DNA of 45,632 nucleotides from Minisyncoccota bacterium (GCA_052034355.1 JBPOIQ010000049.1:1-45632), one strand, 5' to 3'; positions 5,268 through 36,492 are shown, numbered from the stretch's first letter. Translations and numbers: made by a program. Notes: generated from the sequence alone by a model not told the origin.

Positions 5268-5282
5268 ACGGAGGACGAATCG

Positions 5283-5768: not shown

Positions 5769-6383
5769 TCAAGATTGCCGCAAACGCGCGAGATATTTGA
5801 TGAAGACCGTGCTGCCGGAACGTGAGGACGTGCGTTCGAAGGCGCGAACCTCGAACCGCGGGGCGAGAAAGGAACGAAACTCGTCGTCGCCGAAGTAGCT
5901 GAAATACCGGCGCGCGCCCTGATACTCATCGTCCGCCATGAGCCCCTCGCCATCCCCTTCTTTCACCGCGCAGGCAAAAATGCCGGACGGTTCGAGATGG
6001 CGCGCGATCCGTTCAAGCGCGTTCGGAATTCCAGCCTTCGAAAGATGCAGCAGGCAAGCATTCGCCCAAATGCCGTCGAAACGACAACCGAGCTCGAACG
6101 TCTCAAGATCGAGTTGTTCGGCCCGGAGACCCTTGCTGCGACACAGCTCGACCATTCGAGACGACAGGTCGCCGCACAGGACGCTGAAGCCCCGTTTCGA
6201 AAACTCCTGGGCGTAGTTCCCAGGACCGGAACCAAGATCCAGAATCCGCGCGCCCGCTGGCAACGTACTAAGGAAACGATCGACGTGCGTCATGTTGTAT
6301 CGACGCATGTGCCGTTCGAATTCGACATCGAACGCACGATAGTGCTCGTCGTACGTTGCCATGGTCTCTTGCTTGTCTTTCAT
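5769..6383 (-). CDS. Class I SAM-dependent methyltransferase
   Basis: ORF 5769..6554 trimmed to the ATG at 6383 (MKDKQETMATYDEHY), which removes the overlap with the flippase gene. The SAM motif I is ILDLGSGPGNYA. Confidence 0.75.
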   Translation of the reverse strand: MKDKQETMATYDEHYRAFDVEFERHMRRYNMTHVDRFLSTLPAGARILDLGSGPGNYAQEFSKRGFSVLCGDLSSRMVELCRSKGLRAEQLDLETFELGCRFDGIWANACLLHLSKAGIPNALERIARHLEPSGIFACAVKEGDGEGLMADDEYQGARRYFSYFGDDEFRSFLAPRFEVRAFERTSSRSGSTVFIKYLARLRQS

Positions 6384-14380: not shown

Positions 14381-14430
14381 AGCGTCGTCGTGGTGAAACG
14401 TTTTTTGGCAACAAGGCTTTTCGCAATCGA

Positions 14431-17814: not shown

Positions 17815-20140
17815 GCGCCTGCGCGCCGGCTACGGCGAGAATGAGAATGAGCGGCTCCGTCGGAAAACGATAGCGCGCGAGCGGTTCGAATCCTTCGAAC
17901 GCTTGCAAACGATGCAGCCCGCCAAACATCATCGTCGCAAAAGCGAAGAGAATCGCGAGCATGAAACCGATCTTTGCCTCGCGCGGAAGCTTGCCGCGCC
18001 AAAGGCCGACCAGGGCAAGGAATAAAATGAACCAATGCGTGAGCACGAGAAACATCTTAACCAACACCTGACGCAAAGGCTGCGCCGCCATGAAGTATCC
18101 CGGTTTCAAGGACAGGTGGTACACGACATCACCGCCAGGATTTGTTCTGCCCTCAATCGGCTCCCCCGCTCCCACATCGCTCAGCCGATGCGGAAAGCGC
18201 CAATACAGGTAGGTACCTTCGACATACAGATGCCAGCGCGAAGGCGCGAACAAAAATTCGACAAGTGTCGGTTCGAACAAAGCTTGTTCATAGTTCTTTG
18301 CGACAAGCGGCGCCTGCGTCAATGCGTGCTTTTTTGCAATAGAAGCATTGCGCAAGGAGATGCCACCGAACGCCAGAAGCGTTGGAAGCACGAGCAGGAG
18401 CGCCAATTTCCAGGAACGCTTCGAAACGAGCGCCCAGGCGCCGAATACAACGGCTTGATAAAAACCGAACTCGCGCGTGAGGCCAGCCAGCATAAAACCG
18501 ACACCCGCAACCAAAGCATTGTGCAACTGCCGGCGCTGCACGGCAAAGACCGCGCACACGATCGCGCTCGTCAACAAGAACGTGTAGAGCGTCTCGGTAT
18601 AGAGGATGCCGCTTTCAAGAACCGAAGGCGTATAAACGGCGAGCAGTACTCCGGCAAGCAGGCCTTCCTTGCGTCCAAGCCAGGTACGAGCCGCGAGAGC
18701 GCCGATAAAAACAGTTGCCGATGAGAGTGCTGCCTGGACGAGACGAATCCACAACAAGTCATTGCCGAACAAGCTGCGAATGGCGGCGAGAAGATATGGG
18801 TATCCCACCGAAAAAAAACGGAGATCCTCTTTCGGCACGGCATCGACGAGCCCGCGGACATAGTCGGACAAGCCGAGATAGGCCGGCCCATCGCCTCCGT
18901 CAATTTTCAGTTGCGGAAAATACGCGACATACAGGACGCGGATTGCAAAAGCAAGGCAAGCTACCGCGATTTCCACCCGATAGCGCTCATACCACGCCTC
19001 GGAGCGCTTCGATTCCGGAAGATCCTGAAGCACGTCCATCGCACGATGCGTCCATGAACAACCCTCCGCCAGCGCCAACGCCTCGCGTTCCAACTCTTCT
19101 TTTTTTACGGGAGACTCCGCAAGCGTCGAGAGCGCCCGGGCAAGAGCGGTTGGATCCGACGGCGACACAAAAACGACCGAGCGCTCGGAAAGCACTTCGC
19201 GCACGGAAGGTGTACTTGTGGCGATGATCGCCTTCCCGGCGGCGAGATATTCGAACAACTTGAGCGGCGAAAGGAATTCCGCGGCGTGACGGCCGGAGGC
19301 ACGGGTCGGCAGGACAGCCGCGTCCGCCGCGCGAAGATACAGAGGCACCTGCGCATGCGGCACCATGCCGGTAAACGTCACGTTCGTCAGCCCGAGCGCT
19401 TGAGCGCGCGTCTCAAGCCGCGCCAGATCATCCGGACGACCGCCAACGAAAAGAACGCGCGTCGACGGTTGGACGTGCGCGCAGGCTTCAAGCAAATCAT
19501 CCGCCCCTTTATAGGGATACAAGTGCCCCGTATACACGGCGATAAACGCGCGTTCCGGCAAACCGAGTTTCGCCCGCGCTTCCGCTTTCGTCTCTTTCAC
19601 TTCAAACTTTGCCGCATCAACGCCGTCATGCGCGGTTTTCACCGACGTTTCCGGAACACCGGCGGAGACGAACGCGCGCCGCAATCCTTCTGTCACCGCG
19701 ACAACGCGAGAGGCGCGCTTCCAAAGCCAGCGGTGGAAACGCGTGACGCGCTCGGGAAAATTATGCGCTTCAAACACGGAGCGTGCGCGCGCGTCGATCC
19801 CGACAAACCACGGATCGCGGGTATAGACCACATCGGGCCCGAACTGGCGAACAACACGAGACGCTTTCAACCAAAACTGCGGAAGGTTGAGCCAGAGCGC
19901 AAATCGCCCGAAAAACCGGTCGTGCCAAATAAAATCAAGAATCGGAACCTGCACGATCTTGAAGGAGGGTTCCATCTTGTAATACTCCCACGGCGTCGCC
20001 TGAAGCGGATTCGTCCTGCGCGGCACCACAAGGCATACGTCATGACCGTTGCGCGCAAAAGCCTGGCACATCTCCATAATCTGGAGGCCATGGGCTTTTT
20101 CGGTGGGTAATCGGATGTCCGCAACGTACGCGATTTTCAT
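17792..20140 (-). CDS. Fusion protein: N-terminal GT4 glycosyltransferase plus C-terminal GT-C-like (ArnT/PMT_2-like) membrane domain
   Basis: ORF 17792..20617 trimmed to the ATG at 20140 (MKIAYVADIRLPTEKAHGLQIMEM). The first ~385 aa form a GT-B/GT4 domain. The rest is a multi-TM domain beginning YVAYFPQLKIDGGDGPAYLGLSDY, typical of GT-C first-loop acidic motifs. Confidence 0.75.
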   Translation of the reverse strand: MKIAYVADIRLPTEKAHGLQIMEMCQAFARNGHDVCLVVPRRTNPLQATPWEYYKMEPSFKIVQVPILDFIWHDRFFGRFALWLNLPQFWLKASRVVRQFGPDVVYTRDPWFVGIDARARSVFEAHNFPERVTRFHRWLWKRASRVVAVTEGLRRAFVSAGVPETSVKTAHDGVDAAKFEVKETKAEARAKLGLPERAFIAVYTGHLYPYKGADDLLEACAHVQPSTRVLFVGGRPDDLARLETRAQALGLTNVTFTGMVPHAQVPLYLRAADAAVLPTRASGRHAAEFLSPLKLFEYLAAGKAIIATSTPSVREVLSERSVVFVSPSDPTALARALSTLAESPVKKEELEREALALAEGCSWTHRAMDVLQDLPESKRSEAWYERYRVEIAVACLAFAIRVLYVAYFPQLKIDGGDGPAYLGLSDYVRGLVDAVPKEDLRFFSVGYPYLLAAIRSLFGNDLLWIRLVQAALSSATVFIGALAARTWLGRKEGLLAGVLLAVYTPSVLESGILYTETLYTFLLTSAIVCAVFAVQRRQLHNALVAGVGFMLAGLTREFGFYQAVVFGAWALVSKRSWKLALLLVLPTLLAFGGISLRNASIAKKHALTQAPLVAKNYEQALFEPTLVEFLFAPSRWHLYVEGTYLYWRFPHRLSDVGAGEPIEGRTNPGGDVVYHLSLKPGYFMAAQPLRQVLVKMFLVLTHWFILFLALVGLWRGKLPREAKIGFMLAILFAFATMMFGGLHRLQAFEGFEPLARYRFPTEPLILILAVAGAQALGRGSKR

Positions 20141-20227
20141 AGGGACTTCGTGTGCTATTCTGCCAAGAAACCGGCTTTTTGGCCAGCCGTTGACAATCGA
20201 GGACACGGCTCCGATAATGGAAAAGTT

Positions 20228-20728
20228 ATGATACAGATGCTTATCGCGCTTGAACGCCTCTTCCTGCGCGTTTGGAACGGTTTTGCCCTGCGCTGGCGTT
20301 CCCGCTATTGGTCCCACCATTTCGGCGCCTGCGGAACCAGTCTTGCCGTCGGCGGACCGCTCACGGTCAAGTGGCCTGAGCATGTCCGTGCCGGTACCGG
20401 AGTCCTGATCGCGGAAGGCGTCTATCTCAACGCAAGAGCGACGATCCAGCTCGACGACCATGTACGCTTGTCGTCTTTCGTACGCATCAATACCGGAACA
20501 CTCGACGTGCAGACGCCTCCTGAAGCGCGGTCGGCGCACATCGACAAGCCGGTCCATATAGAAAAGTACGCCTGGCTCGCGACCGGCGTCATGGTGAACC
20601 CTGGTGTCACGATCCACGAAGGCGCCGTCGTGGGAGCCGGTTCAGTTGTTGTAAGCGACCTGCCCGCGTACACTTTGTGCGTCGGTGTGCCCGCCAAACC
20701 GATTCAAGACCTTCCTCGATCCGCGTGA
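20228..20728 (+). CDS. Left-handed beta-helix (hexapeptide) acyl/acetyltransferase, WcaF/MAT-like
   Basis: ORF 20150..20728 trimmed to the ATG at 20228. Hexapeptide repeats include IEKYAWLATGVMVNPGVTIHEGAVVGAGSVVVSDLPAYTLCVGVPAKPI. Confidence 0.7.
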   Translation: MIQMLIALERLFLRVWNGFALRWRSRYWSHHFGACGTSLAVGGPLTVKWPEHVRAGTGVLIAEGVYLNARATIQLDDHVRLSSFVRINTGTLDVQTPPEARSAHIDKPVHIEKYAWLATGVMVNPGVTIHEGAVVGAGSVVVSDLPAYTLCVGVPAKPIQDLPRSA

Positions 20729-20783: not shown

Positions 20784-21446
20784 TCAACCAAGCGTACGCG
20801 CGCGATCGACGATCTGTTGCCAAAAACCCTTGGCTCCAAGCACCAACTCGATCGCTTCGCGCACCGCGCCGTTCCCACCATTGCGGGTGGAAACGAACAT
20901 GACTTCCTTGAGCACCTCAGGCGCCGCGTCGGCCGGGGCGGCGGAAAAACCAACCCGACGTAGAAGGGCGAGGTCCTGAATGTCGTTGCCCATGAAGAAC
21001 ACCTCATCCCAACCCGCTCCATGAAGCGCTAGAAGCCCCTCGACTTCGGCGACCTTGTCCGCGACCCCGAACCGAAGGTCGACGCCCAGATCCTTGGCGC
21101 GCTGACGTACCGCCGGCGAGCTCCTTCCGGTCATGAAGACGACGGGGATGTCGTGGCGCAAGCACTCCTTTACGGCAATACCGTCGCGCGTGTAGAAGCG
21201 GTAGCCTTCGATCCGTCCGTCAGCAGCGCTGGCGAGATAGTGCATCTCTTCCACGGCGCCGTCGGCGTCGCACGGAACGAGTCTCTTGACCGTGCCGGCG
21301 ACTTCGAGGCCGAAAAGCAACCCTTGCTCGTTTTCCGGTCGCCCGAAAATCGTGACGTGATCCGACGTGTGTACGCCGTCGACATCCGTCACGACGAGCC
21401 GTACCTTGCTCGCAGCCTGTTCCAGATTACGCTCTCGATCGCTCAT
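20784..21446 (-). CDS. kdsC: KdsC-family HAD phosphatase (3-deoxy-ulosonate phosphate phosphatase) with a ~35-aa insertion
   Basis: Motifs are VVTDVDGV (I), MTGRSS (II), DK, FMGNDIQDL (IV) and the C-terminal RNGGNGAVREAIELVL. These match the YrbI/KdsC family. Confidence 0.75.
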   Translation of the reverse strand: MSDRERNLEQAASKVRLVVTDVDGVHTSDHVTIFGRPENEQGLLFGLEVAGTVKRLVPCDADGAVEEMHYLASAADGRIEGYRFYTRDGIAVKECLRHDIPVVFMTGRSSPAVRQRAKDLGVDLRFGVADKVAEVEGLLALHGAGWDEVFFMGNDIQDLALLRRVGFSAAPADAAPEVLKEVMFVSTRNGGNGAVREAIELVLGAKGFWQQIVDRARTLG

Positions 21447-22218
21447 GGGTTTCCTCCGATGTTACAGGTTCACGTTCGAATATAGCGCGAACGCGTTCCA
21501 ATTCCTCGATCGTATTCACGCCAAGATTGCGAAAATGTCCTTTCACCATGCGCATGCGGTATCCATGTTCCAGAATACGCATCTGCTCAACCCCCTCGAC
21601 GCATTCGATAGGCGTTCTCGGCAGAGAAAGGAATTCCGTCAAGAAGGAGCGGCGCATCGCCATCGCGCCGATCACGTGATAGTCATGAAATGGCGCGTCC
21701 TTGTGGTGACGAAACGGCACGGCTGCGCGCGTGAAGAAAAGAGCATTGTCGTTTTTGTCCATCAAGACTTGTACAATGCTCGGTTCGTGCAACATACCCA
21801 TATCCTCAATCCGGTCAGCGAGTCCGGCGACATGAAGGCTCTCGTCCTCAAGAAGCAGGGCGACGCATCGATCGATCGCCTCTGCAGGATAGAGTGGCTC
21901 GTCGCCCCACACATTCACCACGATATCCGGGGTAAAGTCAAGGAATTGCTGAACGGCATAGGCGACGCGATCCGTACCCGTCGGCAGTTCCGAAGGCGAC
22001 ATGATGACGGGGACACCAAGAGAACGCACGACTTCGGCGATGCGTTCGGAATCTGTCGTAACGACGATCGCGTCGAGCGATTTCGCGCGCAGCGTCCTTT
22101 CAACCGTCCGTTGAATCAGCGGCTTCCCCGCCAGATCCTTCAGCATCTTCTCGGGAATTCGGGTCGAACCGAGGCGGGCAGGAATCACTCCCAGCACTTT
22201 TTTATGAAAATCTGCCAT
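21427..22218 (-). CDS. kdsB: 3-deoxy-manno-octulosonate cytidylyltransferase-like (CMP-KDO synthetase family)
   Basis: ORF trimmed to the ATG at 22218 (MADFHKKVLGVIPARLGSTRIPEKML). GTDRVA, VNVWGDEPL and EQMRILEHG align by eye with E. coli KdsB motifs (IPARYASTRLPGKPL, GTERLA, VNVQGDEP, EQLRVL). Confidence 0.85.
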   Translation of the reverse strand: MADFHKKVLGVIPARLGSTRIPEKMLKDLAGKPLIQRTVERTLRAKSLDAIVVTTDSERIAEVVRSLGVPVIMSPSELPTGTDRVAYAVQQFLDFTPDIVVNVWGDEPLYPAEAIDRCVALLLEDESLHVAGLADRIEDMGMLHEPSIVQVLMDKNDNALFFTRAAVPFRHHKDAPFHDYHVIGAMAMRRSFLTEFLSLPRTPIECVEGVEQMRILEHGYRMRMVKGHFRNLGVNTIEELERVRAIFEREPVTSEETHERSRA

Positions 22219-22226
22219 AAAAACCG

Positions 22227-23081
22227 TTACAATGTGCGTCCGACGGCCTGCGCCACGAGACGCATCCCCTTCATCATCTCGGAAAACGTCTCCGGCAAAA
22301 GCGCCTGCGCGCCATCGCACAGCGCGTGCTCCGGATCATGGTGTACCTCGACGATCAAGCCATCGGCGCCGACGGCGACGGCCGCGCGAGAAAGCGCGGG
22401 AATGATATCGGGTCGTCCTGCCGCGTGGCTCGGGTCGACGATGACGGGCAGGTGGGTTTCTTTTTTCAGGACGGGAATAGAGGAAATGTCGAGCGTGGCG
22501 CGCGTCGACTTCTCGAACGTCTGAATACCGCGCTCGCAAAGCACGACGTTCGTGTTGCCGCCATGCAAAATGTACTCCGCAGCCGACAACAGTTCAGACA
22601 CCGTAGACCCGGCGCCGCGCTTGAGTAAGATCGGCTTTCGAAGCTGGCCAAGTTCCTTCAATAAGGAAAAGTTCTGCATGTTGCGCGCGCCGACCTGAAG
22701 CACATCGATGTCGTACTTCAGAAACAAAGGGATCGCGCGTGCATCCATAATTTCCGTCACGATCGCGAGACCTGTTTTCTCCCGAACTTTTTTCAAAATA
22801 TTCAAACCTTCCTCTTCAAGGCCTTGAAAGCTGTACGGCGAACTACGAGGCTTATACGCACCACCGCGCAAGGCCGTTGCGCCAGCTGCTTTGACCTGTT
22901 CGGCAACCTTTGTCACCTGGTCTTCAGACTCGACGGCACAAGGACCGGCAATGACGACAAGCTTTTCCGAACCAAAAACCCCGCCAGTTATTGCAACTTT
23001 CGTCGTATCTGCCACCGCCCCTCGGGAAACCAGCGGATGTGCGCTCTCTTTTTTTCCGCAAACTGTCGCTGTAGAACCCAT
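22227..23081 (-). CDS. Type I-beta DAHP-synthase-like PEP aldolase (DAH7PS/KDO8PS family; DAH7PS-type motifs)
   Basis: ORF trimmed to the ATG at 23081. Motifs are VIAGPCAVES, RGGAYKPRSSPYSFQG, LQVGARNMQNF, LLKRG, VLCERGIQTFE, VIVDPSHAAG and EVHHDPEHALCDGAQAL. The KPRS loop is the DAH7PS version; KDO8PS has KANRS. Confidence 0.85.
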   Translation of the reverse strand: MGSTATVCGKKESAHPLVSRGAVADTTKVAITGGVFGSEKLVVIAGPCAVESEDQVTKVAEQVKAAGATALRGGAYKPRSSPYSFQGLEEEGLNILKKVREKTGLAIVTEIMDARAIPLFLKYDIDVLQVGARNMQNFSLLKELGQLRKPILLKRGAGSTVSELLSAAEYILHGGNTNVVLCERGIQTFEKSTRATLDISSIPVLKKETHLPVIVDPSHAAGRPDIIPALSRAAVAVGADGLIVEVHHDPEHALCDGAQALLPETFSEMMKGMRLVAQAVGRTL

Positions 23082-23220
23082 AATTGCTCGGAAATGCGAG
23101 TATAGGAACAATAACCATTTACCATCTTCTTGACAAGGCTGCGCAGGCAGCGCTCACAGACGTTTCTCCTCAGGCCTTCCGCGAAAGGCGGTCGCCTAAA
23201 ATAACCACTGCGAACTTCCA

Positions 23221-23249
23221 TTGACAAGAGCGGTCGCGACAACGATACT
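23221..23249 (+). promoter_or_regulatory. Putative promoter (-35 TTGACA, 17 nt, -10 GATACT) of the 23280-29493 operon
   Basis: TTGACA at 23221-23226 and GATACT at 23244-23249. A second TTGACAAG copy lies at 23130. Motif inspection only. Confidence 0.4.
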
Positions 23250-23279: not shown

Positions 23280-24077
23280 ATGAACTTCAGCTTGATCGGC
23301 ACCGGTTTCATCATGCCTCGCCACGCCGAAGCTATCGAGGCGCTCGGCGGAAAGTTGATCGACGTCGTTAATACCGCGTACGGTGAGGATCGTTGGAAAA
23401 CCGGCGTGATGGATAACCCGAAAACCGATTGTATCGTCATTCTCGCGCCGAACGACTTGCACGTACCGATGGCGCGCATGGCGGCCGAAGCGGGCAAGAT
23501 CGTGCTGTGCGAAAAGCCGCTCGGTATTTCTTCAGAAGCCGTCCGTTCGCTCGCGCACTTCGACAAGGTGTTTACGGTCATGCAACTGCGCCATCATCCG
23601 CTCGCGGAGGAATTGCGCGCGCAGGTTGCCGCCGGCGGCACGTTCGAAATCGACATGAACATCTCCGTCTTTCGCGACGAGAAATATTTCCGTACCTGGA
23701 AAGGCGACGCCAAACGTTCCGGAGGCCCGCTCTTCAACATCGGTATCCACTATTTCGACTTGCTGCAGCACATTTTCGGCGCGCCGACGAAGGTTACGAC
23801 GACGGAGCTGACCGATACGGTCGGGTGCGGCGTGATCGAAGGCGAGCGCTACCGCTGCACCTGGACGGTCGGCATTTATCGCGATCGCGCGAACCAGCAG
23901 CGCCGCTTCGTCGTAAACGGCAAGGACTATAATTTTTCCTCGAAGGACAATCTTTCGTTCGAAAACCTCCATCGCGTCGTCTACCGCGAGATGCTCGAAG
24001 GCCGCGGCGTGCGGCCGCAAGAGACGCTGCCCTCGGTCGAACTGGTCGAGCGCCTCTACGCATCCTATGGCGCATGA
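23280..24077 (+). CDS. Gfo/Idh/MocA-family NAD-dependent sugar-nucleotide dehydrogenase (WbpB/WlbA-like)
   Basis: The N-terminal Rossmann is FSLIGTGFIMPRHAEAI and the motif is VLCEKPLG. It is short (265 aa), like the WlbA/WbpB type, and is co-operonic with the LbH N-acetyltransferase and the DegT aminotransferase. Confidence 0.75.
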   Translation: MNFSLIGTGFIMPRHAEAIEALGGKLIDVVNTAYGEDRWKTGVMDNPKTDCIVILAPNDLHVPMARMAAEAGKIVLCEKPLGISSEAVRSLAHFDKVFTVMQLRHHPLAEELRAQVAAGGTFEIDMNISVFRDEKYFRTWKGDAKRSGGPLFNIGIHYFDLLQHIFGAPTKVTTTELTDTVGCGVIEGERYRCTWTVGIYRDRANQQRRFVVNGKDYNFSSKDNLSFENLHRVVYREMLEGRGVRPQETLPSVELVERLYASYGA

Positions 24078-24645
24078 CGGCGTCACGATCCATCCGACGG
24101 CGGAAGTCGCCGACGACGCCATAATCGGCGCCGGCACAAAAATCTGGAGACACTCCCAGGTCGTTTCAGGTGCGCGGATCGGTGAACGCTGCACGATCGG
24201 ACATAACTGCACCGTTTTCGGAAAAGCCGTCCTCGGCCAACATGTAAAGCTGGAGGCGAATATCGACGTCTGGGACCTGGTCACGCTGGAGGACCGCGTT
24301 TTTGTCGGCCCCTCCGTCGTCTTTACGAACGATCCCGCTCCGCGCTCGCGTGACGTTTCCAAACGCGAAGCATGGCTTCCGACGCTCGTACGCGAAGGCG
24401 CGGCGCTCGGAGCGAACGCCACCATCGTCTGCGGCGTCACGATCGGACCATGGGCCATGATCGGCGCCGGAGCCGTCGTCACCAAAGACATTCCAGCCTA
24501 CGCACTCGCGGTCGGCGTGCCCGCCCAAGCGATCGGCTGGGTCTGCGCGTGCGGAGAACGGCTTGATTTTGAAAGCACGAATGCGCGCTGCGTGAGCTGC
24601 TCGGCCGCGTATCTTCTTGAGCGTGGGATCGTGACACCCGTATGA
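24067..24645 (+). CDS. LbH N-acetyltransferase (WbpD/WlbB-like) with a C-terminal Cys-rich tail
   Basis: Hexapeptide repeats run throughout (IHPTAEVADDAIIGAGTKIW..., IGPWAMIGAGAVVTKDIPAYALAVGVPA). The tail is WVCACGERLDF...ARCVSC. Confidence 0.8.
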   Translation: MAHDGVTIHPTAEVADDAIIGAGTKIWRHSQVVSGARIGERCTIGHNCTVFGKAVLGQHVKLEANIDVWDLVTLEDRVFVGPSVVFTNDPAPRSRDVSKREAWLPTLVREGAALGANATIVCGVTIGPWAMIGAGAVVTKDIPAYALAVGVPAQAIGWVCACGERLDFESTNARCVSCSAAYLLERGIVTPV

Positions 24646-25715
24646 AACTTCTTATTGTCACGCAGATCGTCGACAAGAACGACGATGTACTCGGCGCGTT
24701 TCATCAGTGGATCAAACGTTTCGCCGAGGTTTTTGATTCGGTCGAGGTGATTTGCCTCAAGCGCGGTGGAACCGACCTGCCCGCGAACGTGCGCGTCCAT
24801 TCGCTCGGCAAAGAAGAAAAGCCTTCGCGCCTTCGCTACCTTTGGCGTTTTTATAAATACATGTTCGCACTCCGCAAAAAATACGACGCGGTCTTCGTGC
24901 ACATGAACCCGGAATATGTCCTTCTCGGAGGCCCTCTCTGGCGCCTCTGGGGGAAAGTCACGTTTCTGTGGTACGCGCATAAAAAAGGGAGCTGGTTGCG
25001 GCTCGTCGCGCTCCGCATCGCCAATCGCGTCGTGTCCGTTTCGAAAGAGAGTTTCAACGGCAGCGATTCGCCGAAATTTCTCGGCGTCGGCCACGGCGTC
25101 GATCCTGATCTCTACAGCTGCCCCGCGCACCGCGCTTCGCCCAATCGCAAAGCGATTTTGAGCGTCGGCCGCATTACGCCCGTTAAAGAGTACGATCTCC
25201 TGATCGACGCCTGCCGGCTCTTGCGCGATGTCCACCATCGCAGCGACTTCGTCGTGCAACTCATCGGCGGTGCCTCGAACGACGCGGACCGAGCTTATGT
25301 CACGAAACTAAAAGAGAAGATCGCGTCATACGGTTTAACGGACGCATTCGAGTTCGTCGGCCCGGTGCCGAACAAGGAACTTCTCCCCTACCTCTGCCCA
25401 GCCGCGGCATTCGTCAGCATGCAGCGCATCGGCGGTGCCGGAAAATCGTTCCTTGAAGCGATGTCCTGCGGGGTACCAACGATCGTCTGCACCCCCGTTT
25501 TCAATCCATATCTAGGAGAATGGCTGACGCATCTTTTTTACGATTGGACGCCCGAAGATTTTGCAATGAAGCTGAACGCCTGTCTTTCACTTTCCGATGA
25601 GGAGCGCGCCCGCATGAGCGAAACGCTCCGCGGTATCGTCGTTGAACATCACAATCTGAAGAAACTGGTTCGCCGCCTCCGGGAAGAATATGAACTTGTA
25701 CGAGCACGAGGGTAA
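24642..25715 (+). CDS. Glycosyltransferase family 4-like (GT-B)
   Basis: 357 aa with a GT-B layout; the C-terminal motif is GGAGKSFLEAMSCGVPTIV. It has an ATGA overlap with the upstream gene. Confidence 0.75.
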   Translation: MKLLIVTQIVDKNDDVLGAFHQWIKRFAEVFDSVEVICLKRGGTDLPANVRVHSLGKEEKPSRLRYLWRFYKYMFALRKKYDAVFVHMNPEYVLLGGPLWRLWGKVTFLWYAHKKGSWLRLVALRIANRVVSVSKESFNGSDSPKFLGVGHGVDPDLYSCPAHRASPNRKAILSVGRITPVKEYDLLIDACRLLRDVHHRSDFVVQLIGGASNDADRAYVTKLKEKIASYGLTDAFEFVGPVPNKELLPYLCPAAAFVSMQRIGGAGKSFLEAMSCGVPTIVCTPVFNPYLGEWLTHLFYDWTPEDFAMKLNACLSLSDEERARMSETLRGIVVEHHNLKKLVRRLREEYELVRARG

Positions 25716-26850
25716 AGCGATCTTGCGCGCGCACGGCATCAGGACTCCGGACGGGATCCTGATTTCGCGTATGGAAGATATCGTGCAAGCGCGCAACGCT
25801 CTCGGAGGAAAACCGTCCGTGCTCAAGGCTCAACTGCTTTCGGGAAAGCGGGCTGCGCAAGACGCGATCGCTTTTGTGGATACGGAAAAAGATATCGAGC
25901 AACGACTTTCAGCTTGGCACGCCAAAGGATGGACCCAAGCCCTGCTTGAAGAGCGCGTGGAAACGCACCGCGAACTGTACCTATCCTGTCTCTACGATGC
26001 CGTTCAACGGGCTCCGCTTTTGCTGATCGGAGAGGAGGGCGGATCCGCCATCGAAAGCAAGAAAAACGTGCGTCGTTTTCCGATCGATCCGCGAAAACCT
26101 TCAGACTCCCTGAAATTGATCGCCGATGCACTGTCCGCTGTTTCGCCGCGGCTTCCGGAAACATGCGAAAAACTCGTCACGCTTTTTTTCGAAGAAGACG
26201 CCAAGCAAGTTGAGATCAACCCGCTCGCCGAATACATCGACGGATCGTTGATCGCGCTCGACGCGAAAATCGCGCTCGATACGGCCGCTCAAAGTAAGCA
26301 TCCGGAGTGGTCTCGGTATCCGCCCCGCACGACACTCGGACGCGCTTCGACCGGACGCGAGCAGGAAGCCGAACGCATCGACACCGGAGCTGAGGCGCAT
26401 CGCGGCAACGCTGGAACGTTTTTCGAGTTGGATGGCGATGTTGCCACGCTGTTTTCCGGAGGCGGCGCCAGCCTCGTCAACATGGACGCGATGGCGCGTC
26501 ACGGCCTCAAGGCCGCGAACTACGCCGAATACTCGGGGAATCCTCCCAAAGAAAAAGTAGCGGCGCTCGCAAGGCTCGTACTTTCCAAACCGGGTTTGCG
26601 CGGCGCGCTGATCGTCGGGGGTATCGCAAATTTTACCGATATCCAAGAGACGTTCGCCGGCATCGCCGAAGCATTGGACGAATTAAAACCGGCTTATCCG
26701 ATCGTCGTCCGGCGTGCCGGTCCGAAAGAACGCGAGGGACTCGCGCTTCTTCGCGCTTGCGCAGAACGCTGCGGTTTGCAGATGGAACTCTACGGAAAAG
26801 ACACGACGATGGAAGACGCCGTGCTGCGTTTGAAAACCTTGATGGTATGA
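25690..26850 (+). CDS. ATP-grasp SucC/ATP-citrate-lyase beta-like subunit (citryl-CoA synthetase large-subunit-like)
   Basis: The N-terminus MNLYEHEGKAILRAHGI matches SucC MNLHEYQAK. The ACL-like segment is GRASTGREQEAERID...FFELDGDVATLFSGGGASLVNMDA. Confidence 0.75.
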   Translation: MNLYEHEGKAILRAHGIRTPDGILISRMEDIVQARNALGGKPSVLKAQLLSGKRAAQDAIAFVDTEKDIEQRLSAWHAKGWTQALLEERVETHRELYLSCLYDAVQRAPLLLIGEEGGSAIESKKNVRRFPIDPRKPSDSLKLIADALSAVSPRLPETCEKLVTLFFEEDAKQVEINPLAEYIDGSLIALDAKIALDTAAQSKHPEWSRYPPRTTLGRASTGREQEAERIDTGAEAHRGNAGTFFELDGDVATLFSGGGASLVNMDAMARHGLKAANYAEYSGNPPKEKVAALARLVLSKPGLRGALIVGGIANFTDIQETFAGIAEALDELKPAYPIVVRRAGPKEREGLALLRACAERCGLQMELYGKDTTMEDAVLRLKTLMV

Positions 26851-27743
26851 GCATTCTCCTCAATCAACATACGTCCGTCCTCGTTCAAGGAGCGACGGGC
26901 AAAGAGGGCTTGCGGGCGATCGCGAGCATGCGCGCCTATCACACGCGCGTCGTTTGCGGGGTCACGCCCGGCAAGGGCAGCCAGTCGGCCGAAGGCACGC
27001 CGGTATTCGACACTGTGCAGCAAGCGATCTCCGCATTTCCGGAAACGTCCGTCGCCGCCCTCTATGTGCCGCCGTCTGCTGCCAAAGCGGCCATGCTTGA
27101 AGCGATAGAAGCCGGCATTCCTCTCATCGCCGTCATGGCGGAAAAAATACCGCTCCGCGACACGGCCTACTGCCTTGCTGCCGCCGCCGAGCGAGGGATC
27201 CGCATACTCGGCCCAGGATCGCTCGGCTGCCTGGTGCCGGGCGTGGGACGCATCGGCGTCGTCGGCGGGCCGCTTGTCGACGATATTTACACGCCAGGCT
27301 CGATTGGCGTCATTTCCCGTTCCGGCGGCATGACGAATGAACTTTCCTGGCTTGTTCGACGCGCCGGATTGGGACAGAGCGCGGCCGTTCACGTTGGCGG
27401 AGAATTCCTGATCGGTACCGCGTATGCCGATCTTCTCCGCATGTTCGAACGCGATGACGCCACGAAAGCTGTGGTGCTCTACGCGGAACAAGGCGTCAAT
27501 TACGAACGTGAGATTATCGACGTGCTCGCGCGCGGCGAATACACAAAACCGCTCGCCGTCCATATTGGCGGAGCTTTCGCGGCGGCAATGCCCGAAGGCG
27601 CCGTCATCGGGCATGCCGGGGCCATTGTCGGGGCTGGCCAATCGGCCGCCGACAAATCCGCCGCGCTGCACGAAGCCGGAGCCCTGATTGCCGAACGGTT
27701 CGACGATCTCGTAGAATTAGTGCAAGATTCCGTACGCCTATGA
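26847..27743 (+). CDS. SucD/ATP-citrate-lyase alpha-like CoA-ligase subunit
   Basis: ORF trimmed to the ATG at 26847 (ATGA overlap). The CoA-binding motif is VLVQGATGKEG, with SRSGGMTNE and the phosphohistidine loop VIGHAGAIVGAG. Confidence 0.85.
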   Translation: MSILLNQHTSVLVQGATGKEGLRAIASMRAYHTRVVCGVTPGKGSQSAEGTPVFDTVQQAISAFPETSVAALYVPPSAAKAAMLEAIEAGIPLIAVMAEKIPLRDTAYCLAAAAERGIRILGPGSLGCLVPGVGRIGVVGGPLVDDIYTPGSIGVISRSGGMTNELSWLVRRAGLGQSAAVHVGGEFLIGTAYADLLRMFERDDATKAVVLYAEQGVNYEREIIDVLARGEYTKPLAVHIGGAFAAAMPEGAVIGHAGAIVGAGQSAADKSAALHEAGALIAERFDDLVELVQDSVRL

Positions 27744-28471
27744 AAGTCCACACGCGCGTTTCACATGTCACGAAAGAACGGGAAATCGTACGCGGACATG
27801 ACCTGATTTCCCTGATCGGCACGAAGTCGTTCGTCGAAGTCGCGTGGCTTTTGTTGCGCGAATCCTGGCCGACCAAAGAGCAGGCTGCGATGTTCGATGC
27901 GGTTCTTGTCGCCGCCATCGACCATGGTTCCGCACCGGTTTCATCGATCGCAGCGCGTTGCATCGCCTCCTCCGGCAACGAACCGCATGTCGCATTGGCC
28001 GCCGGCATCTTGGCGCAGGGCACGCTGCACGGAGGAGCGATCGAGGACGCTGCGCGTTTCTTTTCAAAGCACGTGGAACAGGATGCCGAGACTGTCGTCG
28101 AAGAAGCGCGGTCTTCCTCAACGCGCATCGCCGGGTACGGACACAAGCTCCTGGCAAAAGACCGTCGCAGCGAAGCGTTGTTCGCCCTGGCGAAACAACT
28201 CGGCACCTCAGGAGCCCACGCAGCTTTCGCCGAACGCCTTGAACGCGCCCTGAACGCCAAGCGGGAAAAGCCTCTGCCGCTCAATATCGACGGTGCCATG
28301 GCGGCCGTACTGCTTGATATGGGATTCGCGCCGGAAACCATGCGCGGAATTTTTGCGCTCGCCCGCTTGCCAGGGCTCCTTGCGCACGTCGTTGAGGAAC
28401 GCGCGACCGTGCGTGGCCCGCGCCGACTGGAAGACGACGAGATCATTTACGAAGGAATCACACCAACATGA
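27740..28471 (+). CDS. Citrate-synthase-fold protein, citryl-CoA-lyase-like (short form)
   Basis: 243 aa. GTLHGGA, GYGHKLL and LNIDGA correspond to the His/His/Asp catalytic signatures of citrate synthase and citryl-CoA lyase. It has ATGA overlaps on both sides. Confidence 0.75.
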   Translation: MKVHTRVSHVTKEREIVRGHDLISLIGTKSFVEVAWLLLRESWPTKEQAAMFDAVLVAAIDHGSAPVSSIAARCIASSGNEPHVALAAGILAQGTLHGGAIEDAARFFSKHVEQDAETVVEEARSSSTRIAGYGHKLLAKDRRSEALFALAKQLGTSGAHAAFAERLERALNAKREKPLPLNIDGAMAAVLLDMGFAPETMRGIFALARLPGLLAHVVEERATVRGPRRLEDDEIIYEGITPT

Positions 28472-29493
28472 ACTTCTTTTCGCAGCGGCTCAGCAAAGAA
28501 AAAAAGAAACGGGTCGTAGACGGCATTCGCCACGTTGTCGAAAGCGAACAGTTCATCGGCGGGCCAGAAGTCGCCGAACTCGAACGCCGTTTGACGGCGT
28601 ATTTCAAAACATCGGCCATCACCTGCAATTCCGGAACCGATGCGTTGTTTCTCGGTCTCAAGGCGCTTGATATCGGCCCTGGCGACGAAGTGATCACCAC
28701 GGCCTTCACCTATTTCGCGACGATCGAAGCAATCGCCGCCCTTGGCGCAAAGCCCGTCCTCGTCGACATCGATCCTGAAACCTACAACATCGACGCCGCG
28801 CGCATTGAGGGAAAAATCACGAAGAAAACCCGAGCCGTTTTGGTCGTGCACCTCTACGGGCTGGCCTGCGACATGGCCCCAATCGTCCGTCTCTGCAAAA
28901 AACGCGGCTTGAAGCTTGTCGAAGACTGCGCCCAGTCTTTCGGCGCCAAGAGCGGGGGCAAACTGACGGGGACGTTCGGGGACGTCGGATGCTTCAGTTT
29001 CTTTCCAACCAAAAATCTCGGAGGATTCGGCGACGGCGGAGCTGTCACGATCCGCTCCAAGGCTGTCGCGAACCGATTCCGCCTTCTCAAAAACCACGGC
29101 CAGCCGAAGAAATACGAACATGCGATCATCGGATACAACAGCCGCCTGGACACGATCCAAGCCGCGGTCCTGATTGAGAAACTTTCTTGGATCGATGACG
29201 ATCTCGCATTAAGAAAAAAGACCGCGACCGCATGGATGAAACGGTTCGAAAGCGATCCGAACGTGCTGGCCCTGCCCACGCAAAAGAACCATACGTTTAA
29301 CGTCTTTACGCTCCTTGTGCGCGACCGCGCCGCTTTTTTGAAGGGATTGGAAAGCGAAAAAATTCCGTCTGCCGTCTATTATGACCGGCCGGTCTACGCG
29401 CAGCAGGCTTATCGAAATCTCTTCGGAACGCACAAGCCGCTCCCCCATTCGGAATTCGCGGCCAAGCACGTGATCAGCTTGCCGATCCACTGA
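28468..29493 (+). CDS. DegT/DnrJ/EryC1/StrS-family PLP-dependent sugar aminotransferase (WbpE/WlbC-like)
   Basis: FIGGPEVAELE, CNSGTDALFL and FSFFPTKNLGGFGDGGAV (the PLP lysine in PTKNLG). Confidence 0.9.
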   Translation: MNFFSQRLSKEKKKRVVDGIRHVVESEQFIGGPEVAELERRLTAYFKTSAITCNSGTDALFLGLKALDIGPGDEVITTAFTYFATIEAIAALGAKPVLVDIDPETYNIDAARIEGKITKKTRAVLVVHLYGLACDMAPIVRLCKKRGLKLVEDCAQSFGAKSGGKLTGTFGDVGCFSFFPTKNLGGFGDGGAVTIRSKAVANRFRLLKNHGQPKKYEHAIIGYNSRLDTIQAAVLIEKLSWIDDDLALRKKTATAWMKRFESDPNVLALPTQKNHTFNVFTLLVRDRAAFLKGLESEKIPSAVYYDRPVYAQQAYRNLFGTHKPLPHSEFAAKHVISLPIH

Positions 29494-32922: not shown

Positions 32923-35116
32923 CGATCGTCTCGCGCTGCGTGGCGATCGATTCCACCAAATCCAGCTTCTCAGGATAGAGCGCGCGCGCTTCGCGGATGA
33001 TCGCGTCGCTTTTTGCTTTATCGCCCAGCGCCCAAGCGCCGATTGCACCCACGAGATCCCACTGAAGATTGCGGATATCGGAAGCGACCGAGGCCTTTTG
33101 CAGTTCGACAAGATCCTTCCAACGACGCTGGTTCAACAGATGCAGCGTGCCGTACTCGACCTGGTCCCAAGCGTCTTGATCGTTCTTGATGCCGGGTTTT
33201 TGCGCCAGGTATTTTGCCGCTTCAATAGGGTCGCGGAATTCAAGCTGCCAACGCACCCACCAGGCATCGCCGAGTAGATTATCAGGGTCGAGTTCACGAT
33301 ACCGTTGAATGTGCTTTTCCGCTTCATCGAGCTGATTCTTTTCCCACGCAATCTGCGCAAGGATGATTTCGACCTCATGCCTGTTCGGCGATCGCGCGGC
33401 TGCGCGAGCGGCGGCGTCCTCGAGCGCCGCTTGCTGTTCGGGCGTACGCGGCCCGAAGCTCAGGTAGGCGGACGAAATCACGAGCGCCTGCACGTAGTCG
33501 TTCCGGTTATTGAAACGGCGATATTCGTCGTCAGCCAAATCTTGCAGAATCGGAAGATACGGCCCTTGGAGATATTCTCCGCGCGCTTGGCTCAGATGCG
33601 ACATCACGGCGCGAATATCGCGCTCATAGTACGGCGATTCCTTTTTACGCAACTCCGCGAGCATGCCGTTCCATTCTTCGGCTGTGCGACCCTGCTGCGA
33701 CAACGCCATGATCATCTGCGACGTCAGTTTCGCCGAGCGGATGGTCGTCGAAACGGTATAGAGACACCAGACGCTCGCAAAAGCGGCGATCAGCGCGAGC
33801 GGAACGGCGGCCTGCGTCGTCTCGTCAGACCCCTCTTCGCGCTCCTCCCGCGAAGCGGCATCAGCCGCGACCAAGGAGAAAATGAAGAAGAGCGCCAAAT
33901 AGGACATCGGCGTTTCGAAAATGAAAAGGTTCGTGCCGACCTGGGAGAAGGCCGCGATCACGAGACCGCCACCGAGCACCCAATCCTCGCGCTTTTTTGA
34001 CACAGCCAGGCGCACAGCGAACGCGAACACCGCGGCATACGCCAAGAAGCCCAGTATGCCAAGATTGTGCAGCACCTCCAGAACGAGGTTGTGCGGGCGG
34101 TCTTGCCGCGTTTCGTACTCGCCGAACACCAGCGTCTTAGGATCGTAGTTGTAATAGTAGCCGCTCTCAAAATTCTCGGGCCCCCAGCCGAGCACCGGTT
34201 TTTGCGTGATTCCCTTCACGACGTTTTCCAGCAAGAATTTGCGGGATCCGCTCGTTTCCTGGAAGTACTGGATGGACAAGCGGGAATCGTACAGCCAGCG
34301 CTTGAACGGATAGACCTGGTTGCCGATCAAGTACGCAACGATTGCGAGCACGACAGCGCCAAGGCTGATCAAGCTGAATTTTCGAGCGCGCTTGCCGCCG
34401 CGCACTGCCGCGATCAACGTCGCGGCCAGAGCACCCAAGAGCACGCCCAAGAGCGCCCCCTTCGATTTCGTGCTGACAATACCGACCATCACGACAACAC
34501 CCGAAGCGAGCCAGAGCCAGCGCGAAGGCGTCTTCCAAGAACGGTACGCAAGCCACGCCGCAAGAAAGAGATGCGGCACGAGATATTGGCCGAGATAACT
34601 GGCGTTCCCGAGCGTGGCGGCGCCTCGAGTGCCGACGACGCCAGCTGGAGGAAACGCCACCTGGATCAATGCATGCAGTGAAAGAATGATCGCCGAGATG
34701 GTTGCCGCGATAACCGGTTGCGCGACGACTTTGCGCCACATCGCGCCAGCCATCAGGAAGAAAGCAAGGAGGTGGTACTGAAAGAACATTCCCGTCAAAC
34801 GATCCGGCTTCGACCAAAAACTCCGATGCAGGTTATCGCCCAAGAACATCGACAAGGTCGCGACGGCGAAGTACGCAAGTATCGCGTAGAAAAAAGCCGA
34901 TTTCTCCGGACGGAACTCCTTGCGGCGGAACGCAAGCAAGACGTAACACGGAAAAAGCAGCTCGACGAGAATTTCAAAGCTCAAAATTTTGCCCGTCACC
35001 CAAGGATACAGATGGCTGAGCCAGACGATGAACGGGATCGCGAACACCGCGAACAAGCCGTACCGGACGAGTTTTATCAGGAACGAATCGAGCGGTTTCA
35101 ACGGGATGTTCTGCAT
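32906..35116 (-). CDS. O-antigen ligase/polymerase-like (Wzy_C) membrane protein with a C-terminal TPR-like repeat domain
   Basis: 736 aa. About 10-12 TM helices are followed by a loop with the PHNLVLEVLHNLGILG motif typical of the Wzy_C/O-antigen ligase family. A ~270-aa helical repeat tail follows. Its start overlaps the murC stop by 19 nt. Confidence 0.75.
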   Translation of the reverse strand: MQNIPLKPLDSFLIKLVRYGLFAVFAIPFIVWLSHLYPWVTGKILSFEILVELLFPCYVLLAFRRKEFRPEKSAFFYAILAYFAVATLSMFLGDNLHRSFWSKPDRLTGMFFQYHLLAFFLMAGAMWRKVVAQPVIAATISAIILSLHALIQVAFPPAGVVGTRGAATLGNASYLGQYLVPHLFLAAWLAYRSWKTPSRWLWLASGVVVMVGIVSTKSKGALLGVLLGALAATLIAAVRGGKRARKFSLISLGAVVLAIVAYLIGNQVYPFKRWLYDSRLSIQYFQETSGSRKFLLENVVKGITQKPVLGWGPENFESGYYYNYDPKTLVFGEYETRQDRPHNLVLEVLHNLGILGFLAYAAVFAFAVRLAVSKKREDWVLGGGLVIAAFSQVGTNLFIFETPMSYLALFFIFSLVAADAASREEREEGSDETTQAAVPLALIAAFASVWCLYTVSTTIRSAKLTSQMIMALSQQGRTAEEWNGMLAELRKKESPYYERDIRAVMSHLSQARGEYLQGPYLPILQDLADDEYRRFNNRNDYVQALVISSAYLSFGPRTPEQQAALEDAAARAAARSPNRHEVEIILAQIAWEKNQLDEAEKHIQRYRELDPDNLLGDAWWVRWQLEFRDPIEAAKYLAQKPGIKNDQDAWDQVEYGTLHLLNQRRWKDLVELQKASVASDIRNLQWDLVGAIGAWALGDKAKSDAIIREARALYPEKLDLVESIATQRETIVTNGG

Positions 35117-36492
35117 AGTGGATATGCGATGGAATAGATGTCGCCTGCGCCCATAATGAGCATCATAGCATTTTCCGTATCGAGGCCCTCGAGCTGTCTC
35201 AACGCTTCTTGAGGCGTTGCGGCATACGTGACGGAGGATACCTTCCCACGGGCCGCGACCGCTTCGACGAGCTGTTTCGAAGAAACCTCGCTCTCCCCTT
35301 CTTTGCGCCCTTCAACGCCGTAGATTTCGGAGAGGATAAGCGCATCTGCAGCATCGAAAGCTGTTACGAAGGCATCGAACAGTTTGCGCGTGCGATCGTG
35401 ATGGTGCGGTTGGAACGCCAAAATTAACTTTCTTCCCGGATAAAACTCTTTCGCGGCCTTGAGTGTCGCCTCGATCGCATCCGGCGTATGTCCGTAGTCC
35501 GAAATAACCGGCGCGCCGTCTCGTTCGCCGACTTTTTCAAAGCGCCGCCAAATACCGGAAAAGGAAGCCAGCGCCGAGCGTGCCGCCTCTTCGGACGCGC
35601 CGAGCGCGCGGGCCGCGCCGAGCGCGGCAAGCGCGTTCAAGACATTGAAAGCACCAGGCACACGCAACTCCAAACCGCTCCAAATGATGCCATCCTGAAA
35701 CACGGCGTCAAAGCGCTGCAAACCTTCCTCTGTATGGTGACGCTCGGCGCGCAAGCTTGCCTCCTTTGAAAAACCGAACGTGCCGCTCATCCGCGTAGCG
35801 TTGGCGAACGTTTCCCGGCTGCCTGGATCGTCCACATTCCAAAAAAGCGTGCCGTTATCAGGTAGTTTGGCGACAAACGTCCTGAACGTCTCCTCGATAT
35901 GCGCGAGATCTCGGTAGTAATCGAGATGGTCTTCGACGATTTTAGTGACGACAACCATTGAAGGCGAAAGACTCATGAACTGTTCGCGGTACTCGCACGC
36001 CTCAACGACGAATATGTCGCTCTTTCCCATGCGGAGATTGCCGTATTCGAAACCTGGCACGCGACTGCCGACGATAACGGTCGGGTCCAACCCCGCTTTC
36101 TCGAGCATGAGCGCGAGCATGGCTGTCGTCGTCGATTTCCCGTTGGTGCCGCACACAGCGACCGTCTTACACCCCCTGGACAGAAGGCCGAGGAATTCAA
36201 AATAGCTGAACTGCGGGATACCAAGCGCCGAGGCGGCCTGTCGTTCAAGTTGCGTTTCCGGTGCGGCGGAAGTGTAGATGAGAAGATCGATATCCGGAGC
36301 GATGTTTTCAGCGGCCGGCTCGACGACGCGTACGCCGGCACGCTCGACATCCGCCGTCACGATCGAGCGCGTCGTATCGGAACCGCTGACATCCTTTCCT
36401 TGTAAACGCAAAAACTTGGCGACCGCTGAAACGCCGATACCGCCGATGCCAACGCAGTGTACGCGGTGGATGTGCTCAAGGTGAGGTACCAT
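35098..36492 (-). CDS. murC: UDP-N-acetylmuramate--L-alanine ligase MurC
   Basis: VHCVGIGGIGVSAVAKFLRLQGKDVSGSD, the P-loop AVCGTNGKSTTTAML, and a Mur ligase C-terminal domain (DYGHTPDAI). Confidence 0.93.
   Translation of the reverse strand: MVPHLEHIHRVHCVGIGGIGVSAVAKFLRLQGKDVSGSDTTRSIVTADVERAGVRVVEPAAENIAPDIDLLIYTSAAPETQLERQAASALGIPQFSYFEFLGLLSRGCKTVAVCGTNGKSTTTAMLALMLEKAGLDPTVIVGSRVPGFEYGNLRMGKSDIFVVEACEYREQFMSLSPSMVVVTKIVEDHLDYYRDLAHIEETFRTFVAKLPDNGTLFWNVDDPGSRETFANATRMSGTFGFSKEASLRAERHHTEEGLQRFDAVFQDGIIWSGLELRVPGAFNVLNALAALGAARALGASEEAARSALASFSGIWRRFEKVGERDGAPVISDYGHTPDAIEATLKAAKEFYPGRKLILAFQPHHHDRTRKLFDAFVTAFDAADALILSEIYGVEGRKEGESEVSSKQLVEAVAARGKVSSVTYAATPQEALRQLEGLDTENAMMLIMGAGDIYSIAYPLCRTSR

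Follow-up and report, generated by a model that had tools for sequence, protein, structure and literature searches.

We examined a 45,632-nt stretch of DNA from a Minisyncoccota bacterium (GCA_052034355.1, JBPOIQ010000049.1:1-45632), called here the window, in which three consecutive open reading frames (ORF1 to ORF3) lie within a string of surface-sugar genes. According to their domains, structural-database matches and conserved motifs, the three genes are predicted to encode the large and small subunits of citryl-CoA synthetase (CCS) and a separate citryl-CoA lyase (CCL), which together constitute a split ATP-citrate lyase (ACL) system. In this and related small-genome bacteria of the Candidate Phyla Radiation (CPR, or Patescibacteria), which generally lack a tricarboxylic acid (TCA) cycle, ATP-dependent citrate cleavage probably supplies acetyl-CoA for the N-acetylation of amino sugars. 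The enzyme system itself is known; the physiological and genomic setting is new.

The predicted citrate-cleaving genes and their operon

The trio belongs to a string of seven genes preceded by a candidate promoter:

23221..23249, + strand: sigma-70-like promoter candidate, TTGACA-17-GATACT, 10/12 (a consensus match only)
23280..24077, + strand: WbpB/WlbA-like Gfo/Idh/MocA sugar 3-dehydrogenase, 265 aa, first gene of the operon (Pfam GFO_IDH_MocA)
24067..24645, + strand: WlbB/WbpD-like left-handed beta-helix (LbH) N-acetyltransferase, 192 aa (Hexapep)
24642..25715, + strand: GT4 glycosyltransferase, 357 aa (Glycos_transf_1; NCBIfam matches generic only)
25690..26850, + strand: ORF1, predicted CCS large (beta-type) subunit, 386 aa (PF08442 and PF16114)
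26847..27743, + strand: ORF2, predicted CCS small (alpha-type) subunit, 298 aa from the ATG (PF02629, PF13607 and PF00549)
27740..28471, + strand: ORF3, predicted stand-alone CCL, C-terminal citrate-synthase fold, 243 aa (NCBIfam NF004869)
28468..29493, + strand: WbpE/WlbC-like DegT-family sugar aminotransferase, 341 aa, last gene of the operon (PF01041, 3.7e-103)

The six successive junctions in this string all overlap, by 11 nt (WbpB-like/LbH), 4 nt (LbH/GT4, ATGA), 26 nt (GT4/ORF1) and 4 nt each (ORF1/ORF2, ORF2/ORF3 and ORF3/DegT). A preliminary description of this DNA had reported the three ORFs, joined to each other and to the GT4 and DegT genes by ATGA or longer overlaps; the ORFs are present in the window exactly as described, and the overlaps measured 4 to 26 nt. 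In a mechanical ORF list, ORF2 begins at an upstream TTG (26757); its ATG start is at 26847. The promoter candidate is the best of the region and sits in a 168-bp divergent intergenic stretch 5' of the first gene, and the gene 3' of the DegT aminotransferase gene is convergent. From the overlapping junctions, the upstream promoter-like site and the convergent downstream gene, the seven-gene string reads as a single operon. Terminator-like sites in the region were no more frequent than in shuffled sequence. The window contained no tRNA genes or Rfam matches, and there was no sign of an RNA element.

ORF1 comprises an ATP-grasp_2 domain (PF08442, 1.6e-23) followed by the Citrate_bind domain of ACL (PF16114, 1.1e-31). 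Its best match in the PDB, according to phmmer, was the CCS large subunit of Hydrogenobacter thermophilus (6hxq_B, 184.7 bits, E = 2e-53), with lower scores for Chlorobium AclB (138.6 bits) and SucC (107 bits). The segments EYSGNPP, ANFT and RR.GP were invariant across 83 CPR homologues of ORF1. In alignments, EYSG(N/D)P, ANFT and RR.GP were common to ORF1, AclB and CcsA, the SucC counterparts being IGGGA, GGIT and RV.G. The citrate-site residues are retained as Gly283, Asn314-Phe-Thr316 and Arg341/Arg342 in ORF1 numbering; we take the citrate contacts of human ACLY (Gly309, Asn346-Phe-Thr348 and Arg379) to correspond to the EYSG, ANFT and RR motifs of ORF1, respectively. We also considered ORF1 as a SucC. 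The protein scored below the SucC models (NF001913, 162.6 bits against a cutoff of 370; TIGR01016, 153 against 375), and the Pfam scan returned no match to PF00549, the SucC-type C-terminal Ligase_CoA domain. These failed models, the presence of Citrate_bind instead of Ligase_CoA, and the ANFT and RR motifs set ORF1 apart from SucC.

The placement of ORF1 among the citrate-activating large subunits depended on the method. The protein is ~37% identical to CcsA, and phmmer favoured CcsA. By contrast, its ANFT and YAEYSG motifs look closer to AclB, and a crude neighbour-joining (NJ) tree with only three reference sequences grouped the CPR large subunits with AclB in 37/40 bootstraps.

ORF2 contains the CoA_binding (PF02629), Succ_CoA_lig (PF13607) and Ligase_CoA (PF00549) domains, and matched SucD (2yv2, 213.7 bits) and CcsB (6hxq_A, 197.8 bits) in the PDB. 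Its phosphohistidine loop GHAGA, within GHAGAI, and an SRSGG motif were invariant across 71 homologues. The protein ends after the SucD-like part and carries no fused lyase module. ORF3 is a separate ORF with its own start codon and holds the C-terminal part of Citrate_synt (Pfam, 1.5e-41). With 231.7 bits it exceeded the cutoff (212) of NF004869, the model for citryl-CoA lyase in NCBIfam, and its best PDB match was the citryl-CoA lyase of H. thermophilus (6hxp_A, 174.9 bits, 1.9e-50). Scores against the lyase modules of ACL (~66 bits) and against citrate synthases (62 bits) were far lower. The HGG, G.GH, D.R, N.DG and R..PG motifs were invariant or nearly so across 69 homologues, and ORF3 retains the His/His/Asp/Arg catalytic set. 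Because the lyase is unfused and ORF2 is only 298 aa long, the trio does not have the two-subunit AclAB layout.

The preliminary description had identified the trio as CcsA/CcsB plus Ccl. The peptides it quoted were all found: MNLYEHEGKAILRAHGI and GRASTGREQEAERID...FFELDGDVATLFSGGGASLVNMDA in ORF1, VLVQGATGKEG and GHAGAIVGAG in ORF2, and GTLHGGA, GYGHKLL and NIDGA in ORF3. Profile searches recovered ATP-grasp_2, CoA_binding, Ligase_CoA and Citrate_synt, and the catalytic His/His/Asp and the phosphohistidine were conserved across 69 and 71 homologues, respectively. Together with the best PDB matches and the invariant citrate-site motifs, these data back the identification. The matches go well past what chance would give.

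Among characterized systems, CcsA/CcsB and Ccl of H. thermophilus (6hxq, 6hxp) resemble the trio in being three separate proteins with the same domain layout, and share its phosphohistidine loop, citrate-site motifs and lyase catalytic residues. Unlike the trio, which sits in a CPR surface-sugar operon, the H. thermophilus enzymes serve the reductive TCA cycle of an autotroph. AclA/AclB of Chlorobium limicola (6hxj) has the same overall chemistry and homologous domains, but its lyase is fused to the alpha subunit rather than encoded by its own gene. SucCD shares the homologous ATP-grasp, CoA-binding and phosphohistidine architecture, and for ORF2 the SucD score is no lower than that for CcsB; the distinction lies in ORF1, which has Citrate_bind in place of the SucC Ligase_CoA domain, and ANFT and RR where SucC has GGIT and RV.

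Sugar genes around the trio in the window and in relatives

The genes flanking the trio resemble those of a defined amino-sugar pathway. WbpB/WbpE/WbpD-type enzymes install and acetylate the 3-amino group of UDP-2,3-diacetamido-2,3-dideoxy sugars. The best PDB matches of the protein encoded at 23280..24077 were WbpB/WlbA structures (3o9z, 102 bits; 3oa2, 99 bits), the next match scoring 44 bits. The LbH protein best matched the Bordetella petrii WlbB acetyltransferase (3mqg, 175 bits, residues 6-188). The DegT aminotransferase scored 253 bits against WbpE (3nu7), with 7b0d and 8e75 slightly higher. Homologues of the 3-dehydrogenase, 3-aminotransferase and 3-N-acetyltransferase are thus encoded together, corresponding to the three enzymes of the WbpB/WbpE/WbpD (WlbA/WlbC/WlbB) route to UDP-2,3-diacetamido-2,3-dideoxy-glucuronic acid. 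The window dehydrogenase differs from WbpB/WlbA in being ~50 residues shorter, and we know of no citrate-cleaving genes in the known wbp/wlb clusters. We also considered the GT4 protein as a BshA-like N-acetylglucosamine (GlcNAc)–malate synthase, for which the malate would be derived from oxaloacetate. The scores against BshA (16 bits) and MshA (34 bits) were far under the cutoffs, and this candidate was rejected.

The distribution of the trio was surveyed in a scan of one representative genome per species, which yielded at least 230 relatives of ORF1. The best 80 were taken with 10-kb flanks and their neighbours identified by tblastn, using as queries the proteins of the window operon and those encoded next to the trio in one Uhrbacteria and one Magasanikbacteria locus; neighbourhood counts cover the 73 of these 80 loci in which the DNA upstream of the trio extended for at least 3 kb. 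Database relatives of ORF1 number more than 1,200, and the named organisms among the best 120 were all Patescibacteria (Magasanikbacteria, Uhrbacteria and the Parcubacteria group). The surveyed loci include a complete 1.17-Mb Patescibacteria chromosome (L009, CP129476.1) and JBAZZB010000001.1 (L010). Many others (L007, L008, L011, L013 and ~35 more) are titled 'uncultured Gammaproteobacteria bacterium', a title that their gene content and closest relatives mark as a placeholder or mislabel.

The linkage of the trio to glycan genes recurs in relatives. The gene order of the window was found at 53-77% identity in L001-L003, L006-L011 and L013, and the full Wbp-type order (WbpB-LbH-GT4-trio-DegT) in 6/73 loci. 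L001-L003 and L006 are metagenome contigs with the Wbp-type order, in which ORF1 identity falls to 53%; the GT4/ORF1 overlap is kept in L001, L003 and L006. In a much larger group, 65 of the 73, the trio lies directly 3' of a colinear set encoding TrmB, a HAD protein, an NTP-transferase, GlmS, a CofD-family protein and a small GNAT. Within this GlmS-type block, NCBIfam models identified GlmS (799 bits), YvcK (268 bits, cutoff 196) and the uridylyltransferase half only of GlmU (GlmU-N, model positions 2-235 of 447). The GNAT is a generic acetyltransferase of ~110 aa. We take YvcK to belong to a family of proteins that bind UDP-GlcNAc. As judged from these matches, most loci place the trio in a module of UDP-GlcNAc type, where GlmU lacks its acetyltransferase half and a GNAT adjoins the predicted citrate-cleaving genes. 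One locus (L021) has two UDP-sugar dehydrogenases, an epimerase and GtrA ahead of the trio, and in one (L025) the trio follows IleRS and hypothetical genes, with no sugar genes upstream. The trio had first appeared as a lone, odd operon; with ~70 related species carrying the trio beside amino-sugar genes, it is instead one arrangement of a widespread CPR association.

The GlmS-type block sometimes encodes a further means of forming acetyl-CoA. Such a second module was present in 16 of the 65 blocks: L-threonine 3-dehydrogenase with glycine C-acetyltransferase (Tdh/Kbl) in eight (L016, L031, L032, L053, L076, L080, L082 and L085), and a three-subunit (alpha/beta/gamma) 2-oxoacid:ferredoxin oxidoreductase (OFOR) in another eight (L039, L050, L051, L054, L059, L060, L063 and L075), the two sets being disjoint. 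Kbl scored 577 bits against a cutoff of 460. The Tdh/Kbl genes lie upstream of GlmS in 7/8 loci and between GlmS and YvcK in L082, and these loci are scattered over the CcsA tree; OFOR was always between GlmU-N and GlmS. A malic enzyme gene lies downstream of Ccl in five loci (L019, 14825-15958; L030, L042, L047 and L078), where the enzyme could provide an outlet for oxaloacetate or malate. Unassigned ORFs within the block were grouped by clustering, and a beta-phosphoglucomutase-family HAD occurs in 29 loci, mostly between GlmS and YvcK.

In many GlmS-type loci (L017, 11217-15719; also, for example, L014 and L020), inserts of 1-3 kb split CcsA, CcsB and Ccl, the three-gene order being kept. 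The inserts encode hypothetical, membrane or small four-helix-bundle-like ORFs. As candidates for extra subunits in Magasanikbacteria-type loci they were rejected: those in L017 are unrelated hypothetical and membrane ORFs, and the insert families that recur elsewhere also encode hypothetical or membrane proteins. A conserved downstream neighbour, 'MJ0043_C', has a PHP-type motif at its start and a Cys-rich segment; it presumably resembles an EndoQ-type nuclease and was handled as unrelated.

Some relatives carry further genes. After the WbpE-like gene, L003 (13720-15416) and L006 (13812-15517) encode a 235-238 aa protein with no Pfam match and a 330 aa formyltransferase (Formyl_trans_N/C); both genes are absent from the window. 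N-formylation of the amino sugar is therefore possible in some lineages. L021 also encodes (2608-5793) a 1061-aa leucyl-tRNA synthetase with a serine-hydrolase/alpha-beta-hydrolase insert at residues 460-633.

The window operon is itself embedded in a glycan region of ~30 kb. Features in and around its sugar-gene stretch include:

13406-14542, - strand: MurB, one border of the sugar-gene stretch
35098-36492, - strand: MurC, the other border of the sugar-gene stretch
20150-20728, strand opposite to the GT4-PMT_2 ORF: second sugar acetyltransferase (LbH)
6481-7851, - strand: Wzx-type flippase, upstream of MurB and past SecA

Between MurB and MurC there are several GT4 genes, an initiating sugar transferase, methyltransferases, a GT4-PMT_2 fusion, a Wzy_C protein, the second sugar acetyltransferase and a cytidylyltransferase/phosphatase/DAHP-synthase-like trio. 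The last of these (20784-23111, - strand) is divergent from the Wbp-like operon. It comprises a phosphatase that is KdsC-like below the cutoffs, a cytidylyltransferase of the CMP-KDO-synthetase type (KdsB model, 240 bits; cutoff 193) and an aldolase that scored as a type I-beta DAHP synthase (424 bits, cutoff 335), with 125 bits against KDO8P synthase (cutoff 242). Judged by these scores, the genes may represent a CPR route to an ulosonic acid that employs an enzyme resembling DAHP synthase. The fusion of GT4 to a PMT_2-type multi-pass membrane domain (17792-20617, - strand) is kept in L001 (5199-7511), L003 (4050-6401) and L006 (4644-6983). Its listed start is probably too far upstream, because the ORF overlaps the opposite-strand LbH gene. 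At 471-2630 (- strand) there is a SecD/SecF-type protein whose SecD P1 sub-domains are separated by a peptidyl-prolyl isomerase domain of the PpiC type (residues 295-405).

Proposed role of the trio in amino-sugar acetylation

The trio would convert citrate, ATP and CoA to acetyl-CoA, oxaloacetate, ADP and Pi. We infer both the substrate and the direction, the latter because a CPR cell without aconitase would be expected to have no use for citrate. The citrate itself would be scavenged, since organisms of this group generally lack a TCA cycle with which to make or use it. In the window lineage, the trio would be co-translated with enzymes predicted to form a UDP-sugar of the 2,3-diacetamido type, and its acetyl-CoA would presumably go to the operon's own WlbB-like N-acetyltransferase and to other sugar acetyltransferases of the glycan island. 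In the sister lineages, the predicted user is the GNAT of the UDP-GlcNAc block. This scheme supposes that other sources of acetyl-CoA would be absent from the host genome. By analogy, the role of the trio resembles that of the eukaryotic cytosolic ATP-citrate lyase, ACLY, and not that of the reductive TCA cycle. ACLY shares the citrate-binding residues and the proposed logic, in which citrate is cleaved outside the TCA cycle to yield acetyl-CoA for biosynthesis and acetylation. It differs in being one fused polypeptide rather than three proteins, and in that the proposed consumer of the trio's product is sugar N-acetylation.

The strongest argument for this role is that three chemically unrelated makers of acetyl-CoA (CCS/CCL, Tdh/Kbl and OFOR) occur beside amino-sugar genes, which argues that the currency of the block is acetyl-CoA for N-acetylation. 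The preliminary description had proposed that the trio supplies acetyl-CoA to the adjacent N-acetyltransferase, and the sister CPR block and the two other acetyl-CoA systems lend this proposal strong comparative support. A broader reading is a real possibility, although we put it at somewhat less than an even chance: in much of the Patescibacteria, acetyl-CoA metabolism would serve mainly the acetylation of envelope amino sugars, organized as a modular block of acetyl-CoA supply and UDP-amino-sugar synthesis. Such a block would comprise a split GlmU (a uridylyltransferase-only protein and a mini-GNAT), GlmS, YvcK and interchangeable acetyl-CoA generators. The generators would always include CCS/CCL, with Tdh/Kbl or OFOR added in some genomes, and in the window lineage the CCS/CCL module would have been relocated to an operon for a diacetamido sugar.

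Several observations weigh against a role in amino-sugar acetylation. In the NJ tree of the large subunit, the 65 GlmS-type loci fall into a single clade, with the Wbp-type clade as its sister, so the arrangements reflect few independent events and part of the synteny is possibly plain inheritance. Only a handful of the associations are truly independent: the Wbp and GlmS types, L021, and the insertions of Tdh/Kbl and OFOR. Many GlmS-type loci have unrelated genes amid or beside the trio (rRNA methyltransferase-like, pseudouridine synthase and hypothetical). The OFOR subunits scored below equivalog cutoffs, so pyruvate is only assumed to be the OFOR substrate. The window and the flanks examined showed no citrate transporter, and the host genome may hold other acetyl-CoA sources or TCA genes.

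Some of these points favour another account, in which the trio serves general carbon acquisition by converting scavenged citrate to acetyl-CoA and oxaloacetate or pyruvate, and its adjacency to amino-sugar genes is an inherited order without coupling. The same role has been proposed for ACL in a CPR Gracilibacterium (PMC6851277). The single clade of GlmS-type loci, the housekeeping genes interleaved in the block (pseudouridine synthase, rRNA methyltransferase-like protein and EndoQ-like PHP protein), and the malic enzyme and OFOR near the trio, which also suit a route from citrate through pyruvate to acetyl-CoA, are consistent with it. We nevertheless consider this account unlikely. The placement of the trio between the GT4 and aminotransferase genes in the window clade, with overlaps of 4-26 nt, is hard to explain without co-function; the GlmS-type loci and L021 provide second and third sugar contexts; and three acetyl-CoA systems converge beside a GNAT and a GlmU that lacks its acetyltransferase half.

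Two further accounts tie the trio to the sugar operon through other products. The wanted product could be oxaloacetate, as a 2-oxoacid (an idea also in the preliminary description) that re-oxidizes the bound NADH of the WbpB-like enzyme or serves the aminotransferase couple, and the WbpB-like and WbpE-like genes do flank the trio. In Pseudomonas aeruginosa, WbpB recycles its bound NADH with 2-oxoglutarate, and WbpE regenerates that 2-oxoglutarate. Given glutamate, the WbpB/WbpE couple is self-sufficient in 2-oxoglutarate, and in the majority GlmS/YvcK/GNAT context there is no such dehydrogenase, so oxaloacetate is not needed there; we find this use of the trio quite improbable. As an alternative, the preliminary description had raised the formation of a di- or tricarboxylate CoA thioester (of citrate, malate or similar) as donor of an unusual N-acyl group for the 3-amino sugar. 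The synthetase genes do share an operon with an N-acyltransferase and an aminotransferase. However, a lyase that keeps all of its catalytic residues is always co-encoded, so citryl-CoA would be cleaved rather than accumulated. In addition, the closest match of the LbH protein is to WlbB, which depends on acetyl-CoA, and in sister lineages the trio is paired with UDP-GlcNAc genes that need acetyl only. The idea of an unusual acyl donor thus fared poorly, and we regard it as very improbable.

Finally, the system could run in reverse as an ATP-yielding citrate synthase, or form part of a reductive TCA cycle that fixes CO2. A bacterial CCS/CCL pair was reportedly described by Aoshima in 2004 as working in the reductive TCA cycle. 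The characterized bacterial CCS/CCL and ACL systems operate in that cycle (10.1101/2022.10.25.513756). By contrast, the matches here are all Patescibacteria, one of them with a complete genome of just 1.17 Mb, and reduced, fermentative metabolism has been described for this group (PMC12577380). The 45-kb window and the 80 flank sets screened contained no TCA gene, and without aconitase citrate would be a dead end. These data leave the reversed or CO2-fixing direction barely conceivable.

Earlier reports and significance

Citrate-cleaving enzymes have been noted in CPR bacteria before. The metabolism of these bacteria is strongly reduced and mainly fermentative, and a 2025 study found aclAB enriched in Saccharimonadia (PMC12577380). 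In 2019, a two-subunit, archaeal-like ACL was predicted in a Gracilibacterium and called rare in CPR; it was proposed to convert external citrate to acetyl-CoA and oxaloacetate, and a link to glycan genes was not reported (PMC6851277). A 2022 preprint recognized CPR and DPANN proteins annotated as succinyl-CoA synthetase or citrate synthase as CCS/CCL homologues and left their role unassigned (10.1101/2022.10.25.513756). Our literature search, which covered non-subscription papers, found no report that ties CCS/CCL or ACL in CPR bacteria to genes of glycan or UDP-GlcNAc synthesis. The occurrence of CCS/CCL homologues in CPR and the proposal of citrate-derived acetyl-CoA were thus already known; the linkage to glycan and amino-sugar genes is, to our knowledge, new.

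Metagenome surveys treat bacterial citrate-cleaving enzymes as markers of the reductive TCA cycle. Here, the predicted citrate-cleaving genes are present in hundreds of CPR species for which CO2 fixation is not expected, and lie beside cell-envelope sugar genes. If the proposed role is correct, matches to ccsA/ccl or aclAB in CPR genomes would be no evidence of autotrophy. Citrate would then be a specific nutrient, derived from a host or neighbour, for the synthesis of peptidoglycan precursors and surface glycans, which would be useful to know for cultivation. The trio would also represent a prokaryotic counterpart of the logic of ACLY, and a non-autotrophic role for bacterial citrate cleavage.

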